Shown piece after piece: positions 30,001-39,000 of a stretch of DNA of 42,600 nucleotides. Position 1 is the stretch's first letter; the number at the start of each line of letters is the position of its first letter. Made by a program: the position numbers. The stretch covers positions 1 to 42,600 of the forward strand of contig CAYTYC010000011.1 in assembly GCA_964442255.1 (NCBI GenBank). Reading direction: 5' to 3'. The stretch is from an uncultured archaeon. GTDB taxonomy: Archaea; Iainarchaeota; Iainarchaeia; Iainarchaeales; 1-14-0-10-31-34.

Positions 30001-33000
30001 CAGTGGACATAATCGGAAACCCGCATTCCTGCATTGTGGACGGCTTGAGCACAATGGTTGAAGGCAATCTGGTGAAAACGCTTTCATGGTATGACAATGA
30101 ATGGGCTTATTCACTCAGGCTGACTGAATTAATGAAAAAAGTTTCCGGTTAAAGAGGAGTGAAAAATGGCTTTGGAACCCCTTCCATTAAACCAGGTCAA
30201 GGGAAAAACCGTTGCCCTCCGCCCTGACATTAATTCCGCGGTCGTGGATGGAAGGCCTTTGGAGTCCCCGCGCATTTCCGCGCACGCGAAAACCCTGGTT
30301 TCCATTTCTTCCGCCGGCGCAAAAACCGTTGTTCTCGCGCACCAGGGAAGAAAGGGGCAGGAGGACTTTGTTTCACTTTCCGGGCATGCTTCCCTTTTGG
30401 AAAGCCTTTCAGGAAAAAAAATTGAATTCATCGCAAAGGAAAAGGAATTGTTTGAAAGAATTCCGTCCCTTAACTGCGGGGAAATTTTGCTTTTCGAGAA
30501 CATGCGTTTTTTTGAATGGGAGGAAAACGAAAAAAGCCCGGAGGAGCACTCCAAAAACCCTTTCATCCAAAGGCTTGCCTCTCTCACGGATTTCTTTGCC
30601 TTGGACGGCTTTTCCGTTGCCCACCGCTCACATGCTTCTGTTGTGGGCTTAATTCCGCTTCTTCCTTCTTTTATGGGCCCGGTTTTTGACTCGGAATTCA
30701 GTTCCCTTTCAGGGCTGTATTCCTCTGAGGGAACCCGCCTTTTAATTCTCGGGGGGGCGAAGCCCAAGGACTCCCTGAAGGTGCTGAAAAACATTCTGGA
30801 AAAGAATTCCGCGGCCAAAGTCCTTTTGGGAGGGCTTTTCGCCGAGCTTTTCCTTAAGGCGCAGGGCTTTTCATTGGGGGCAAAGGAAAAATTTTTTGAG
30901 GAAAAGGGCTTCAACGAATTTGTGGGGCCGGCAAAAAAGCTTTTGGATTCGTTTGCCTCAAAGCTTGAGCTGCCCGTGGATTTGGCTTTTGAGGCAAACA
31001 ATGAGAGAAGGGAATGCAGGGTGGAAGACCTTCCCGGGAATTACATGGTAAAGGACATAGGCTCTTTAACCGCCTCAAAGTTTGAGAAATTTGTTTCACA
31101 GGCTGACTTCATTTTCTGGAACGGCCCTTTGGGCGTGTTTGAGGAAAAAAACTTTTCTTTTGGAACCAAAACCGTTGCCGAAGCCGTTTCCTCCTCCAAG
31201 GCGTTTTCCCTCATAGGCGGAGGCGATACGGCAACTTCCCTGGAAAAGCTCGGCTTTGCTTTTTCAGATTTTTCTTATGTAAGCCTTTCCGGGAAGGCCG
31301 CATTGAAGTTCATTGCGGGGGAAACCCTTCCCGCACTTGAAGCCCTCAGGGAGGCAAAAAATGCATAAGCCCCGGATGTTCAGGCTTGCGCGGAAGGATT
31401 TGCCTTCTTACCTCGGCTGGCTCGCAAAAAGGCATGAATTGTTTGTTCCCACAGAGAAACTGAACGGCGGCAGCAGCTTCGAGCCGTTCACCGGCCAGGA
31501 ACCCGGGCTTGACTCGCTTACCAGTTACCCGATTAAAAAGTTTTTTTTGCCCCCAAGGGAACAACTTCTCCAGTTCAGGCGGCAGAGAAAAAATTTTTCA
31601 TCCAAAAGCCTTTCCGAAGCAAAATCAACGGTTTTGTTTGGCGTCAAAAGCTGTGACTTAAGGGATATGCTGAAGCTGGACAACGTTTTCCTTGAACAGA
31701 AACCGGTTGACCCGTATTACGGGGAAAAAAGGGAAAAAACTTTTTTGATTGGCTTGGACTGCCTGGAGGCGGATGAACACTGCTTTTGCACTTCTGTCGG
31801 CGCCCACATTCCCACAGGTTTTGATTTGATGTTCTGGAGGAAGGGAAAGGATTTTTTCATTGAGCTCGGTTCGGAGAAAGGAAAAAGGCTTATCTCCCCG
31901 CACATGAAGAAAACGGCTTACACTAAATTCCACCCGAAACAGGAATGCAAAGTGAAACTGAAGTTGGCGGACCTCACAAACAATTTGCGCTCCAGCTTTG
32001 ACCACCCTTACTGGAAGGAACTGGAGGAAAAGTGCCTTGGCTGCGGAACCTGCACGCAGGTCTGCGGCTGCTGCTACTGTTTTTTCATGGAAGAGCACTC
32101 CCTCCCCAACTCCAAAACCTCGGTCCGGAGACGGGAATGGGATTCCTGCATGCTTGCGCAGTTTTCGGAGGTTGCCGGCAACCACGTGTTCCGTGAATCC
32201 AGGGCTTCGCGCCTGAGGCAGAGGATTTTCCACAAATTTGTGTGGTTTGAGTCAACTTACGGTGAAATTGGCTGCACGGGGTGCGGGAGATGCAGCAGGG
32301 AATGCACTGCCCGCATTTTTATTGAGGACATCCTCAAAAAACTTGGGGAAAAAGGGGGAAAAAAATGAACCCGTATGCGCCTGAAAAAGCCAAAATATTG
32401 AAGGTGAAGGAGGAAAACCCTTCCATTAAAACCTTCACCGTGCGTTTTGATTCAGGGAAAAAACAGGAAAATTTTTCCTTTCTTTCCGGCCAGTTCGTTG
32501 AAGTTTCAGTTCCCGGGGCAGGGGAGTTTCCCTGCTCAATTTCTTCTTCTCCTTTCAGGAAAAAATCCTTTGACTTGACTGTTTCACTGCAGGGAAGGGT
32601 GAGCGAAAAAATGCATTCCCTGAAGAAAAATTCGTTCATCGGGGTCCGCGGCCCGTATGGAAACTCTTTTCCCGCCCAAAAACTGAAGGGAAAGCATTTG
32701 AACATTGTTGCCGGCGGACTGGGGCTTGCGCCTTTGCGCTCAGTAATCCAGTATGCGTTGGACGAGAAAAGGGAGTTTTCTTCTTTGAACATTTTCTTCG
32801 GCGCCCGCTCACCAAGGGAACTGATTTTCAGGAATGATTTAAGGCACTGGAAAAGTTTGAAGGACGTGAATGTTGTGGTTACGATAGACAAAAAGGACCC
32901 CGACTGGAAGGGCTGCACCGGGCTGGTGGCAGACGTTTTAACCCCTAAAACCCTTCCAAAACAGAATTCCCTTACCTTGATTTGCGGTCCCCCGCGCATG

Positions 33001-36000: not shown

Positions 36001-39000
36001 AACAAAAAGAAGAAACTAACGTTTGAAGAAAACTAATCAGCTGATCTTTCCCCCAACCCGCTTCACAAAAGCAAATCCAAAAAAAACAGAAAAAGCGGTT
36101 GATTCCTGCAGCGGGAACCAGCCTGATTCAAAAGGCAGTTTTTGCTTTACCACCAGGCCATTGGCGCTGTTCCGATGAGTGTTCTCTCAAAGGAAACTTT
36201 TCCCCATGTCAAGTCGTCTTTAAAGCAAACAACCTGTGGCTCCCAATTGTCGCTTCCGCCGCCAAAATTCACTCTTTGCTTGTCTATGAGTGCCCTTGGA
36301 ACAATTTTTTGCTTGTCAATTAAAACCTTTGTTCCGCCGCTTGTTTTTCCCCATATAACGTCGTCAGAGCTGCTGGCATGCAAGCCAACTGCCGCAAAAG
36401 CAAGCACTGCAGCAATTATCCCAATTAAAACCAAGTTCTTCATGGCCCAAACCTCCTGTAGTATTGAAAGGATTGCTTTAATTAGTGCTTAACCCCTAAA
36501 GCTTTTCCAGCGCCTTTTCCACTTCCCCCAGCGCTTTCTTTTTTTTCCACTCCACAGGGACTCCGATTATCTTCAACCCCTTTAATTCCCCCAGCTTTTC
36601 CTTCAGTCCCAAATATAGCCCGAAATCAAAGTCATGCATGGAGGTGCGGTTCAAAAAATCAAAGCCCTTCAAAGAATCAAAAACGCGGACTTCTTTCAAT
36701 CCCTGCACTGCATCCAGTATTACCACTTTCCCCCAGTCCTCCACTTCATCCAGTTCCCGGGGCTCCTGCACTTCCCTTACTTCAAACCCTTTTTTCTCCA
36801 GTTCTTTCCCCAGCTCCAAAGCAATTGAATCCCCTTTAAGCAGGGGATTCCCGAACACAAGCACTTTGCGCTTCATCCAAATAATCTTTTAAGGACTTAT
36901 CCATTTTAACTCTTACATGTCCCACAGGAAAGGCGTTTTCCTTGCATTTCTTGCCGCATTGGTGAGCGGAGCCTCAATTTTCCTGAATTCCTTTGCTGTC
37001 CAGCCTTTTGACCCTTTTTTGTTCACTTCCCTGAAAAACGTTCTGGTTGTCGTTCTTCTCTTTGCAGTCTTCCTTTTCCTGAAAGATTTGAGCTCATTTA
37101 AGCTCCTTAAAAGAAAACACTGGCTCCAGCTCGCGTTAATCGGTTTAATCGGCGGAAGCATTCCCTTCCTTTTATTCTTTTACGCGTTGTCCCTTACGAC
37201 AGTGGTTAACGCCGCCTTCATTCACAAGCTCTTGTTTTTGTTTGTGACAGCCCTTGCGGTTGTGTTTTTGAAGGAAAGGTTCAGCAAAAAAATCTTTTTT
37301 GGGGCGGTTCTCCTGCTTTCCGCAAACATCCTGCTTTTCGGGATAAATGTCGTGCAGTTCACCTTCATTGACCTCTTAATTCTAACAGCCACCGTTTTCT
37401 GGGCGGCTGAAAACGTGATAAGCAAGCGCGTTTTAAAGGAGCTTTCCGGGCTGCAGGTGGCTTTCGGGAGAATGTTTTTCGGTTCGCTTTTCCTTTTTGG
37501 GTTTCTTTTTTTCACCGGAAGAATTGAACTGATTCCTTCACTTTCCCTTTCCCACTTTTTTTGGGTTTTCCTGACCGCGGGCTTCCTCTTCGCTTACGTT
37601 CTTTTCTGGTACTCCGGCCTGAAGCTCATTCCCGCCTCAACCGCGGCCTCAATCCTTTTAATTGGCCTTCCCGTTACCGCAACCCTTAACGCGGTTTTCC
37701 TTGGAAAAAGCATTCTCCCTCTGCAGGCCCTTGCTTTCCTTTTGTTGTTCCTTGGAATAACTTTTTTCCTTTCCCCGCAGAAAAATTTTTCCTCCCTTAA
37801 AACCAAACCCTTTGGTTGAACCCATGAACGGACTGGAGTTGTTCGGAAAGTTTGCCTTCAGGCCCAACCAATTGAAGTACTGCGGCGAGGAAGGATTTTG
37901 GAAGCATTTCCTCCAGTACCTGAATTCCGGTGAAACTGAAGAAAACCTGCGCTCAAAAATGAAATCCTTTCCTGTTGCCTTCCCTTTTCTTTCCCTTATC
38001 GCAAGAAAAAACTGCGCGGAAGATTTTTTGGATGAAAGGGTTGTGGAGGCCTACTGGATTGGGAACAGCCTTTTGGAGCAGGTTAAGGCAGAGGACATCA
38101 ACAAACTGGTTTTGAATGAGCTTACAAAGAATGAATCCCTGCAGGAAAACATCGCACAGGAAATAGCCAAAAAAATCCCTTTTTCCGCCTTTTCCCACCA
38201 TTCCCTGCACGTTTTTTTGCTCCATGCAGCCTCCGGAACCGAGCCCCGGATGGCTAAGCACCTGGATTCCTGCAGAATTTCCTGGGGCGAGGTTCTGAAG
38301 GTTAAGGGCGAAACCCGGATGGCTAAGCACCTGGATTCCTGCAGAATTTCCTGGGGCGAGGTTCTGAAGGTTAAGGGCGAAAAGGCCACAGTTCTTTTCA
38401 ATCCCATCTCCCGTTCAAACGGAAAATTCCTGCTTTCAGAGCCAAAGGAAAAAGAAATTGCTGTCCCAAAGGAATTCAGCCTTCAATTGGAGAGAGGCGA
38501 TTTTGCTGCCTTTCACTGGAATACTGCGGCGGTAAAGCTTTCCCCAAAGCAATTAGCGAATTTAAAAAAGTACACGGAACACAACCTGAAAGCAGTGAAC
38601 TCATTTTAGCGGCTTTTTCTTTTTGAGTGCGTTCAAAACCTTTGCAGTCTGCCTTTCATCCTCTTTGCTTAGCTCTTCAATCACTATCCTGCCTTTGAGC
38701 AAAACAAAGCTTCCCTTCCTCGCGCCAATAAGGTTTTTTGCCTCGATAAGCTGTTCCCCGAACCTTACCAGTGCAATTCCTTCCCTTTCTTCAGCCACTT
38801 TTCCCGGGAGAGTGAGGCACATGCTAAAAGAAAGGCTGAATCAGTTTATAATGTTTATTTATTTTTCAGAACCCTTATTTTTTCCACCCATAAACAAATT
38901 CATCAACCCTTTGGCTTGCATTTTCATTCCCGGTGCCCCAATCGAACGGCTTCAAATCCGGAATACTCCCTTTCTTTTTCTTTTTTCCTTTTTTACGTCT

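Follow-up and report, generated by a model that had tools for sequence, protein, structure and literature searches.

HypD, HypE and HypF are held to be essential for building the iron-cyanide-carbonyl centre of [NiFe]-hydrogenases, and Pyrococcus and Thermococcus, which carry the group-3b sulfhydrogenases I and II, possess the full Hyp set. Extra HypC-type or scaffold proteins (HybG, HupF, HoxL and HupK/HoxV) are found beside particular hydrogenases, according to the accessible text of PMC12134894. Archaeal [FeFe]-hydrogenases are described, in the accessible part of another report, as widespread without the canonical maturases HydE/F/G, and an alternative pathway was inferred there (Cell 2024, PMC11216029). 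The group-3b-related "hyd1/hyd2" hydrogenases of CPR bacteria have truncated small subunits (~164 aa) and lie near genes of a HypC-like protein family, and their function was thought to be perhaps supported by "unknown genes" (Jaffe et al. 2020, PMC7304191, accessible text); the main text of that paper never uses the word "maturation", and its accessible part makes no mention of missing HypDEF, DUF6390 or a transporter.

The stretch of DNA analyzed here (the window) comprises 42,600 nucleotides of a contig from an uncultured archaeon of the order Iainarchaeales, with a genome size of 1.28 Mb. Four hydrogenase genes lie on its forward strand, directly behind GAPDH and PGK: a 4Fe-4S beta subunit resembling HydB/ShyB/AsrA (31361..32368; PF17179 Fer4_22, 97 bits; NF040829 ShyB, 181 bits, below the equivalog cut-off of 690), an FAD/NAD(P)-binding gamma subunit resembling HydG/ShyC (32365..33189; PF00175, PF00970 and PF10418; NF006220, 249 bits; HydG-like, 221 bits), a delta (small) subunit (33179..34060; PF01058 (Oxidored_q6), 72 bits; ShyD-like, 176 bits) and a large (alpha) subunit of group-3b type (34110..35390; PF00374, 105 bits; ShyA-like, 265 bits). 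All four reading frames are where the first-pass annotation had placed them, and profile searches assigned them to the beta, gamma, delta and alpha families. Its description of the enzyme as intact also held, as the alpha subunit keeps all four Ni-Fe cysteines in the motifs RICGTCSPAH (residues 61–70) and DPCFSCSTH (residues 411–419), the latter followed by a 7-residue C-terminal tail. The closest solved relatives of this subunit are sulfhydrogenase I alpha chains (top match 9nez_D, E 3.8e-60). Judged from its sequence, the product is predicted to be an intact, functional-looking, cytoplasmic NAD(P)-linked [NiFe]-hydrogenase of group-3b type with four subunits, and its location directly behind GAPDH and PGK suggests that glycolytic reducing power is disposed of as H2.

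Could such enzymes nevertheless be inactive relics, or hold another metal site without diatomic ligands? The large subunit of one genome, G004, is broken into two frames, and the large-subunit scores fall under the NCBIfam equivalog cut-offs, as might be expected of enzymes that are not standard [NiFe](CN)2CO hydrogenases. However, both cysteine pairs and the conserved tail are present in 18 of the 19 large subunits of the order, the split G004 gene being the exception, and in all complete large subunits from 80 diverse loci; the cysteine pairs themselves occur in every large subunit examined, regardless of the maturation system of the genome. Moreover, large subunits that are 81–83% identical to orthologues accompanied by HypCDEF are found, and a dedicated endopeptidase and HypC are still kept. 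We regard this explanation as very unlikely.

The large subunit was found in six of the nine genomes of the family, the same count as obtained previously. A profile search confirmed that HypD is absent from all nine, and no full-length HypF or HypE was found in the family, as had been claimed. The lack is real and much wider than the family: HypD was detected in only 4 of 151 genomes of the order, full-length HypF and HypE only in the same four, and 59 of the 63 hydrogenase-bearing genomes of the order are without HypD, HypE and HypF. The four HypD matches score E 1e-87 to 1e-119, which indicates that the model detects HypD in this lineage. In the window's own genome (G000), HypA and HypB gave no match over the cut-off, and the best "HypE" match proved to be ThiL. 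It might be argued that HypD, HypE and HypF are present but were missed, since most of the genomes are metagenome bins of 60–99% completeness and very divergent proteins can escape HMMs. This is barely credible, however, as the matches to these proteins in sister genomes range from E 1e-87 to 1e-220, as no HypD, HypE or HypF was found in G023, a single-contig, 99% complete genome with both hydrogenase and DUF6390, and as the perfect anti-correlation with DUF6390 described below is beyond the reach of chance loss.

Downstream of the hydrogenase, two genes that the first-pass annotation had left uninterpreted within its span encode an EamA/DMT-family transporter (36917..37819, forward strand; PF00892, two repeats, 128 bits) and a DUF6390 protein (37812..38609, forward strand; PF19927, 173 bits). 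The stop of the former overlaps the start of the latter by 8 nt. In all 19 sources, drawn from 9 families, EamA directly precedes DUF6390, 18 of the 19 loci having a gap of ≤4 nt; HypC adjoins the pair in 18 of 19 sources. A profile of this EamA subfamily matched 59 genomes of the order; each of the 52 that contain DUF6390 is among these, and the four with HypD are all unmatched. Within the order, the subfamily occurs only in genomes with DUF6390 or a short form of it, the homology of which to DUF6390 is supported by hhalign (95.7%, E 1e-8, 159 columns). It is absent from the hydrogenase-free family members G001 and G002, and only a weak paralogue is present in G006. At 80 bacterial and archaeal DUF6390 loci, HypC was nearby in 51, the module EamA in 48, HypA in 17, and HypD and HypF in none; HypA and HypB stand beside DUF6390 in other lineages. 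Some DUF6390 loci have no hydrogenase in view nearby.

We observed that DUF6390 and HypD exclude each other. Among 453 genomes from three lineages (151 each from the order, Chloroflexota and Patescibacteria), DUF6390 was found in 80, HypD in 82 and both in none, although kinship among the genomes within each sample means that such statistics overstate independence. The 63 hydrogenase genomes of the order divide into 51 with DUF6390 and EamA, 6 with short DUF6390 and EamA, 4 with HypDEF and 2 (83% and 85% complete) with neither. In Chloroflexota, DUF6390 occurs in 15 genomes, HypD in 66 and both in 0; the 77 with a large subunit comprise 61 with HypD, 13 with DUF6390 and 3 with neither, and no large subunit was found at E≤1e-12 in 2 of the 15 DUF6390 genomes. 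The Patescibacteria counts (13, 12 and 0) are by themselves non-significant (P about 0.33). In five DUF6390 genomes picked from outside the order (the cultured Nocardioides aquiterrae, two Chloroflexia, one Micrarchaeia and one Patescibacteria), HypD, HypE and HypF were found in none. The two systems also alternate between close relatives. In one genus, G076 has HypCDEF, whereas G118 and G146 have EamA and short DUF6390, with identities of 81–83% for the large subunit, 89% for the small subunit and 70% for HypA, but only 35% for HypC. Likewise, an Mbh-like group-4 cluster shared by genomes of one family (f27) is accompanied by DUF6390 and EamA in 11 genomes and by HypDEF in 2.

One explanation is that DUF6390 and EamA act as accessories linked to the hydrogenase without replacing HypDEF, for example the former as an additional HypC-type chaperone and the latter as a permease for metals or metabolites. 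By appearance, the block contains no ligand-forming enzyme, DUF6390 has just two invariant cysteines, and the HypC-type paralogues HupF and HoxL, each serving a single enzyme, are known in other bacteria (PMC12134894, accessible text). Yet a chaperone of this kind is expected alongside HypDEF, whereas HypD was seen in 0 of 80 DUF6390 genomes; the systems swap between orthologous enzymes inside one genus; the block goes with group 3b, group 4 and group 1/2-type hydrogenases rather than with one of them; and no other conserved neighbour emerged from 20 loci of the order or from the 80 diverse loci. We consider an accessory role rather unlikely.

The DUF6390 protein consists of a putative new helical N-domain and a HypC-like beta-barrel, each with invariant Cys and His; across 117 homologues, C20, G21, H126, C150, H210 and W211 are invariant. 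In the model of one homologue (pLDDT 94.6, pTM 0.92), the best match of the C-domain among 48,161 PDB chains was HypC (2z1c_A, Z 5.8, rmsd 1.9 Å over 71 of 71 residues). Profile comparison by hhalign with the local HypC gave 84% probability (E 7.5e-6), and the top three matches of the DUF6390 profile to PDB sequences were all HypC, each non-significant alone (E 0.11–0.4), with the invariant His paired with the HypC His in these alignments. No homology to HypD was found (hhalign 0.2%). The window's own copy contains a perfect 69-bp tandem duplication (38245..38382, forward strand; Tandem Repeats Finder, period 69, 2.0 copies, 100% matches), which preserves the reading frame, gives two copies of the Cys motif found at the beginning of the HypC-like domain and shows up as 23 extra residues in comparison with all homologues.

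The HypC-type chaperone itself (73 aa; 38601..38822, reverse strand) is present as reported; the earlier statement that it falls below the Pfam cut-off does not hold, since it scores 30.1 bits to PF01455 against 28.5 in the Pfam copy used, while its 25.2 bits to TIGR00074 are below that model's cut-off of 48. It keeps the N-terminal Met-Cys and lacks the usual His. M1 and C2 are invariant in an alignment with 16 orthologues, where Gln or some other residue takes the place of the His, and HypC proteins adjoining DUF6390 have Cys2 in 49 of 49 cases and His in only 8 of 49; the HypC of HypDEF genomes retains the His. A predicted DUF6390–HypC complex from G023 scored 0.56 (best control 0.01), with contact agreement of at least 88% between runs and partner pLDDT of at least 76. 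Among 157 solved complexes, 116 attained the mark, compared with 2 of 215 mismatched pairs, but with scores of ≤0.60 just 18 of the solved complexes did so, along with both mismatches; the prediction lends an interaction weak support.

The 126-aa protein (36496..36876, reverse strand) has no Pfam match at E≤1 and a match to TIGR00072 below the cut-off (E 5e-6, 26.5 bits), and its identification as a divergent HybD/HycI-type maturation endopeptidase was borne out by its fold. With the AlphaFold2 model (pLDDT 83.6), the top 11 Foldseek matches were all hydrogenase endopeptidases (best 5ija_A, E 1.2e-7, TM 0.72), and G9, D16, D55, H81 and D84 are invariant across 18 orthologues. Within the family, G004 and G008 have this protein, and the hydrogenase-free G001, G002 and G006 lack it.

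How, then, might the iron centre be made? The exclusivity of DUF6390 and HypDEF and the conserved transporter point to an undescribed route of hydrogenase maturation. The earlier suggestion of an unknown route stands and gains a concrete candidate within the same coordinates, the EamA–DUF6390–HypC block, which does not co-occur with HypD. On comparative sequence evidence, we think it reasonably likely that this non-homologous module, together with the endopeptidase, replaces HypDEF, and DUF6390 is proposed to replace the HypD scaffold. In the chemistry that we infer, DUF6390 would hold iron between two sets of invariant Cys and His residues, one in its barrel and one clustered in its helical domain, as a single-chain equivalent of the HypC–HypD site, but one lacking an Fe-S cluster. 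Either the diatomic ligands themselves or a precursor of them would come from a source independent of HypE and HypF, and the co-translated EamA permease would probably supply or remove a small molecule for this step. The stand-alone HypC would then carry the unit to the apo-large subunit, nickel would be inserted next (HypA and HypB were not found in the window's genome), and the endopeptidase would cut the 7-residue tail before the subunits assemble. No gene of the block looks like one for a carbamoyltransferase, dehydratase or radical-SAM enzyme, and HydG-like genes were found in 0 of 5 genomes.

Alternatively, Fe(CN)2CO or a late precursor (cyanide, thiocyanate) could be taken from a host or the community through EamA, with DUF6390 and HypC receiving and delivering it. 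No gene is coupled to DUF6390 more tightly than the transporter, the 1.28 Mb genome is small and without HypA, HypB, HypD, HypE and HypF, and a ligand-forming enzyme was looked for and none found. On the other hand, the EamA–DUF6390–HypC block without HypDEF also occurs in bacteria with 2.6–5.0 Mb genomes, including the cultured Nocardioides isolate, for which dependence on a host is unlikely; host supply, which the first-pass annotation had offered as its other answer, is therefore not supported as a general one. The module EamA was not within 8 kb at 32 of the 80 DUF6390 loci and so may not be obligatory, and LicB, the closest solved relative of the window's EamA, is designated as a permease of the DMT superfamily; DMT permeases are not known to carry metal complexes. 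We judge uptake of the finished unit or a late precursor unlikely, while some precursor may enter through the transporter.

Compared with sulfhydrogenases I and II, which provide the best family and PDB matches, the window's enzyme has the same alpha, beta, gamma and delta subunits, the cysteine motifs and the short C-terminal tail, but its subunits score far below the NCBIfam equivalog cut-offs, and many relatives in the order differ in having a short small subunit and a large subunit only. These short small subunits and the HypC-type neighbour recall CPR hyd1/hyd2 (PMC7304191, accessible text). The proposed module would do the same job as canonical HypC–HypD and HypE/HypF, that of making the iron unit ready for the large subunit. 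It likewise includes a barrel of the HypC fold that bears a His and, on its N-terminal side, a Cys; a second conserved Cys comes from a partner domain, and the stand-alone HypC and endopeptidase are kept. Since the barrel of DUF6390 is fused behind a helical domain, its Cys is internal and not N-terminal as in HypC. Unlike HypD, DUF6390 has no Fe-S cluster motif and neither GPGCPVC nor CGGHTH, the motifs of the local HypD alignment, and with only two invariant cysteines it cannot copy HypD redox chemistry; unlike the canonical system, its genomes are without HypE and HypF, and a membrane permease is co-translated with it. HybG, HupF, HoxL and HupK/HoxV act in addition to HypCDEF, whereas DUF6390 is never found with HypD in the 453 genomes and accompanies three hydrogenase groups. 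The nearest parallel in kind is that of the archaeal [FeFe]-hydrogenases (PMC11216029), which are likewise widespread without their canonical maturases and for which another route was inferred; that case concerns another enzyme class and cofactor, and its accessible text names no replacement genes, whereas here a specific, mutually exclusive gene block can be put forward.

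Four genes of the window, which adjoin or overlap one another at the positions reported by the first-pass annotation, encode a [NiFe]-hydrogenase with the domains expected of its subunits: a ShyB/AsrA-like 4Fe-4S dicluster protein (beta; 31361–32368), an FAD/NAD(P)-binding protein (gamma; 32365–33189), the small subunit (delta; 33179–34060, PF01058), and the large subunit (alpha; 34110–35390, PF00374, 105 bits). The large subunit has both Ni-Fe cysteine pairs, RICGTCSPAH at residues 61–70 and DPCFSCSTH at residues 411–419, and ends in a tail of seven residues. The best NCBIfam matches of the four proteins are ShyA/B/C/D and HydA/B/G/D, and the best PDB chains of alpha are those of sulfhydrogenase I alpha (E = 3.8e-60); the equivalog cut-offs were missed by alpha (265 vs. 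700), beta (181 vs. 690), gamma (211–221 vs. 600–650), and delta (176 vs. 460). Judged by these best family and PDB matches, the enzyme is classed as a distant, non-equivalog member of group 3b (sulfhydrogenase-type). Directly upstream of the beta gene lie the genes for GAPDH and PGK (29061–31368), and the order PGK-beta-gamma-small-large was found again in six genomes of another family. This adjacency fits a hydrogenase that would dispose of glycolytic reducing power.

Downstream of the large subunit, a DUF5678 ORF (35453–35653) overlaps a retropepsin-like Asp_protease_2 ORF (35644–36036), and a minus-strand ORF of 98 aa whose N-terminus is hydrophobic follows (36147–36443); none of the three has a counterpart at the same position in 20 related loci. 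In an open frame that leaves the 3′ end of the window (42219–42599), an identical unit of 15 residues occurs at least three times. Many genomes of the order sample (151 genomes of Iainarchaeales) have a short small subunit (~160–180 aa) with a large subunit, and beta and gamma were not seen nearby (loci L011–L015, L022–L025, and L030); this arrangement is similar to the CPR "hyd2" type. In two family genomes, a gene for an FKBP-type peptidyl-prolyl isomerase lies directly upstream of the small subunit (L011 3252–3815; L024 11842–12411, minus strand). SlyD-type FKBPs aid nickel insertion in E. coli. In the genome G004 (96% complete, ~10 contigs), the large subunit is divided between two open frames (195 and 199 aa) with one cysteine pair each (L028 4202–4789 and 4880–5479); a frameshift, a sequencing error, or decay to a pseudogene may account for this.

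Which of the proteins that build the Fe(CN)2CO unit accompany this enzyme? Of HypA–F, the window's genome (1.28 Mb, 51 contigs, 93.8% complete) has HypC only. HypD gave no match there even at E ≤ 10, HypF gave partial-domain matches only, and HypA and HypB gave none over the cut-off. A "HypE-like" match of 73.6 bits was rejected because it is ThiL (TIGR01379, 327 bits), and the best "HypA-like" match was rejected as rubrerythrin. In the order, the large subunit is present in 63 of the 151 genomes and HypD in four (G076, G083, G098, and G136; E = 1e-87 to 1e-119); the same four have full-length HypF, on two contigs in G098, and three of them have HypE over the cut-off. Consequently, the lack of HypD, HypE, and HypF proposed in the first-pass annotation is borne out in this genome and extends to 59 of the 63 hydrogenase-bearing genomes of the order, including one that is a single contig and 99% complete (G023).

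Could neighbouring genes stand in for the missing proteins? Within the span that the first-pass annotation had delimited lie two genes that it left uninterpreted, encoding an EamA/DMT permease with two EamA repeats (36917–37819; PF00892, 128 bits) and a DUF6390 protein (37812–38609; PF19927, 173 bits vs. a cut-off of 25), the start of which overlaps the EamA stop by 8 nt. They are followed by HypC on the minus strand (38601–38822); its earlier identification stands, and its score is 30.1 bits against the PF01455 cut-off of 28.5, not below it as had been reported. We compared this EamA-DUF6390-HypC block with 20 loci fetched from 18 other genomes of the order in nine families. EamA lies immediately upstream of DUF6390 on the same strand in 19 of 19 sources (18 loci and the window), with a gap of at most 4 nt and mostly an overlap in 18 of the 19 when the first start codon is taken as the ORF start, and the HypC gene adjoins the pair in 18 of the 19 DUF6390-bearing sources. 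In G004 and G008, the structural genes are elsewhere in the genome, and the three genes of the block are still together. The farther neighbours (geranylgeranyl reductase with ferredoxin, an NFACT protein, and a lectin-domain protein) were set aside as plain synteny, unrelated to the block. The geranylgeranyl reductase of one locus (L018 9054–11453; 799 aa) has a LAGLIDADG domain within it, suggestive of an intein or a homing-endonuclease insertion.

In a wider set of 80 DUF6390 loci (±8 kb) drawn from numerous lineages of bacteria and archaea, HypC was found near DUF6390 in 51, a 3b-type large subunit in 48, and the EamA subfamily of the block also in 48, being not near in the other 32. HypA was near in 17, a nickel/peptide-type ABC transporter in about 13, and a HypB-type GTPase in 7 of the 80 loci. 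HypD and HypF were near DUF6390 in none of the 80.

The block and the canonical builders were found to exclude each other. In the order, DUF6390 occurs in 52 of the 151 genomes, 51 of which have the large subunit, and in none of the four HypD genomes. The profile of the block's EamA detects a single copy, at an E-value no worse than 1e-37, in each of 59 of the 151; every one of the 52 DUF6390 genomes is among these, and no HypD genome is. The seven genomes with EamA alone led to a short DUF6390 relative of 157–181 aa, which lies beside EamA in six (G030, G047, G088, G118, G130, and G146) and has no Pfam DUF6390 match (for example, L126 4604–5077 in G118, with counterparts in L129–L132). Homology of this short form to DUF6390 extends over both domains (hhalign probability 95.7%, E = 1e-8, 159 columns); the short form lacks the middle of the helical domain, including a His-rich segment, and keeps a Cys near the N-terminus and the Cys and His of the barrel. 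Thus, the 63 hydrogenase-bearing genomes divide into 51 with DUF6390 and EamA, 6 with the short form and EamA, 4 with HypDEF, and 2 with neither (G028 and G074, which are 83% and 85% complete).

The same exclusion was observed outside the order. Among 151 sampled Chloroflexota, 15 have DUF6390, 66 have HypD, and none has both; a large subunit is present in 77, which comprise 61 genomes with HypD, 13 with DUF6390, and 3 with neither. Dropping one genome flagged as unpublished (G193, with HypD and a large subunit) gives 65 and 76 and leaves the outcome unchanged. Among 151 Patescibacteria, 13 have DUF6390, 12 have HypD, and none has both. The hypergeometric chance of zero overlap is 8e-4 within the 63 genomes of the order, 3e-12 within the 77 Chloroflexota, and 0.33 for all 151 Patescibacteria, naive values that the kinship of the genomes makes optimistic. 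Over all 453 genomes, most of which are bins and which are not phylogenetically independent samples, 80 have DUF6390 and 82 have HypD, with none common to both; this evidence, like all that we present, is comparative. HypD, HypE, and HypF were each found in 0 of 5 DUF6390 genomes picked for a search, namely, the cultured Nocardioides aquiterrae JCM 11813 (5.0 Mb), two Chloroflexia (3.2 and 2.6 Mb), one Micrarchaeia, and one Patescibacteria. The first-pass annotation had suggested that a host cell might supply the Fe(CN)2CO unit; the existence of free-living and cultured carriers of DUF6390 weakens this idea.

The exchange can be seen between orthologous enzymes. The hydrogenase of G076 is accompanied by HypA-HypC-HypD-HypE-HypF, and those of G118 and G146, from the same genus, by HypA-HypC-short DUF6390-EamA. 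Between these neighbourhoods, the identity is 81–83% for the large subunit, 89% for the small subunit, 70% for HypA, 63% for the maturation endopeptidase, and 35% for HypC. In family f27, a Mbh-like group-4 cluster with both cysteine pairs is present in 13 of 13 genomes; 11 of these have DUF6390 and EamA, adjoining the cluster in the two loci read, and the other 2 have HypCDEF. In three Chloroflexota (G168, G181, and G197), DUF6390 lies 2–3 kb from large subunits with end-to-end PF00374 matches (764–783 bits), and small subunits with the group-1/2 C-terminal domain occur at 13 of the 80 DUF6390 loci. That the block serves several hydrogenase groups argues for a general role in maturation rather than for an enzyme subunit. 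The enzymes of genomes without HypDEF might be inactive or carry a different metal site. We consider this unlikely because 18 of 19 large subunits of the order, and all complete ones from loci elsewhere, retain both cysteine pairs and the tail; these large subunits are, moreover, close orthologues of enzymes served by HypDEF.

What kind of protein is DUF6390? The protein collection contains 765 homologues of comparable length, and no fewer than 585 reference species carry the protein; DPANN archaea, Patescibacteria, and Chloroflexota supply the named examples, and two JGI copies bear the label "hydrogenase maturation factor". Fused or longer forms (423–2000 aa) were not found at E ≤ 1e-10. Ten residues are invariant in 117 aligned sequences (C20, G21, F49, V73, Y77, G80, H126, C150, H210, and W211), only two of them Cys, and there is no Fe-S motif. 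The AlphaFold2 model of a homologue (pLDDT 94.6, pTM 0.92) consists of a helical domain (residues ~1–150), a small beta-barrel, and a C-terminal helix. Its best match among 48,161 PDB representatives is the HypC of Thermococcus kodakarensis (2z1c_A; Z 5.8, rmsd 1.9 Å, all 71 residues) and the second is E. coli HypC (Z 4.6). The three best PDB sequence matches of the DUF6390 profile are also HypC, singly not significant (E = 0.11–0.4), with the invariant His on the HypC His, and hhalign against the local HypC alignment gave a probability of 84% (E = 7.5e-6). Against HypD, the alignment of 117 DUF6390 sequences with three HypD sequences gave 0.2%, so homology to HypD was not detected in this comparison. 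The whole model had nothing at E ≤ 0.001 in a Foldseek search of the PDB; the helical N-domain had no structural match in a PDB-wide VIA search, which barely probed residues 1–75, and no usable look-alike in the ESM Atlas. In the window, PF19927 matches in two stretches owing to an internal duplication. A perfect 69-bp tandem duplication at 38245–38382 (2.0 copies, 100% identical, in frame) repeats 23 residues with the invariant Cys of the HypC-like domain and thereby doubles the Cys motif; it may be a recent event or an assembly artefact.

HypC itself is altered where it accompanies DUF6390. M1 and C2 are invariant in 17 sequences, and the conserved His of the VHxG segment (His51 in E. coli numbering) is absent from the window's HypC (Lys or another residue stands there) and is mostly Gln in the orthologues of the order. 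In the HypC proteins beside DUF6390, Cys2 is present in 49 of 49 and the VHxG His in only 8 of 49, the replacements being Gln (17), Asn (6), Asp (6), Ala (6), Tyr (3), Ser (2), and Leu (1). The HypC of HypDEF genomes retains the V-H-x-G His, and the Cys and His of DUF6390's own barrel are kept without exception in the 117 homologues. The loss of His from HypC, together with the retention of Cys and His in DUF6390, fits an iron-holding role that would have moved to DUF6390. A predicted complex of DUF6390 and HypC from G023 scored 0.56 (best control 0.01; runs agree in at least 88% of contacts; partner pLDDT at least 76), which lends the pairing weak support. Of 157 solved complexes, 18 reached the mark at scores of 0.60 or lower, and so did the only 2 of 215 mismatched pairs that reached it at all.

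The 126-aa ORF at 36496–36876 (minus strand) has no Pfam match at E ≤ 1 and scores 26.5 bits against TIGR00072, under the cut-off of 47.45. Its AlphaFold2 model (pLDDT 83.6) finds [NiFe]-hydrogenase maturation endopeptidases in all of its top 11 Foldseek PDB matches, the best being 5ija_A (E = 1.2e-7, TM 0.72) and 1cfz_A (E = 1.1e-6, TM 0.74). In the E. coli HybD/HycI enzymes, the metal is bound by an acidic residue (Asp or Glu) close to the N-terminus, an Asp in the middle of the chain, and a His. In 18 orthologues of the ORF, G9, D16, D55, H81, and D84 are invariant, and D16 and D55 align to GN..(D)D and iDA of 5ija_A. The orthologues of G118 and G076, 27% identical to the window's, pass PF01750 with 24.3 and 25.2 bits against 23. 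The hydrogenase-bearing G004 and G008 have the gene, and the hydrogenase-free G001, G002, and G006 do not. Fold, orthologues over the Pfam HycI cut-off, and presence with the hydrogenase thus uphold the divergent HybD/HycI-type endopeptidase of the first-pass annotation. The seven residues after the last cysteine motif of alpha are the extension expected of its substrate, and this tail is kept across 18 large subunits.

Our best reading of the presence, conservation, linkage, exclusivity, and folds of the block is that EamA and DUF6390, with a modified HypC, probably stand in for HypD, HypE, and HypF by non-orthologous displacement. DUF6390 would bind iron through the Cys and His of both domains, the iron unit would pass via HypC to the large subunit, and the permease, the nearest solved chain of which is LicB (7b0k_A, E = 1e-9), may move a precursor or a by-product. 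The block offers no evident source of CN and CO: none of its members resembles an enzyme, an Fe-S motif is absent from DUF6390, and HydG-like radical-SAM enzymes, another potential source of these ligands, were found in 0 of 5 genomes. The cell may import a small precursor. A bolder form of the displacement reading, which we offer tentatively and hold to be somewhat less probable than its denial, is that the block is a complete second pathway to Fe(CN)2CO, independent of HypD/HypE/HypF and of carbamoyl phosphate, in which the scaffold would lack an Fe-S cluster and the permease would deliver a ligand precursor. This pathway would have displaced HypDEF repeatedly, and its carriers, at least 585 species, would span both domains: among them are DPANN archaea, CPR bacteria, and, with uptake enzymes of group 1/2 type, soil Chloroflexota and Actinomycetota.

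According to two reviews of 2025 (PMC12134894, PMC12130793), every [NiFe]-hydrogenase requires six Hyp proteins. Intact enzymes in hundreds of species without three of the six challenge this rule, and the small conserved block found in place of the missing three, mutually exclusive with them, makes it directly testable whether there is another way to Fe(CN)2CO. If the block works in this manner, it could simplify the maturation kit needed to produce hydrogenases in heterologous hosts, bear on the still unsolved question of where the CO ligand originates, and change the inference of hydrogen metabolism for DPANN, CPR, and soil-bacterial genomes, in which a missing Hyp set might otherwise be taken as "non-functional". 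In main texts outside subscription journals, we found no mention of DUF6390, none of EamA with HypC and hydrogenase, and no description of missing HypDEF or of the block in DPANN, CPR, or Woesearchaeota. Sections of Jaffe et al. 2020 (PMC7304191) report that CPR hydrogenases have truncated small subunits and a HypC-like family in their vicinity, and mention "unknown genes"; these sections do not take up maturation, and the word "maturation" is absent from the main text. Parts of an Antarctic-soil preprint on group 1l hydrogenases mention unlabelled conserved ORFs only. In its relevant passages, a 2024 Cell paper (PMC11216029) describes archaeal [FeFe]-hydrogenases without HydEFG, for which an alternative pathway was inferred with the candidate genes unnamed; these enzymes are a parallel case to the [NiFe]-hydrogenases without HypDEF.
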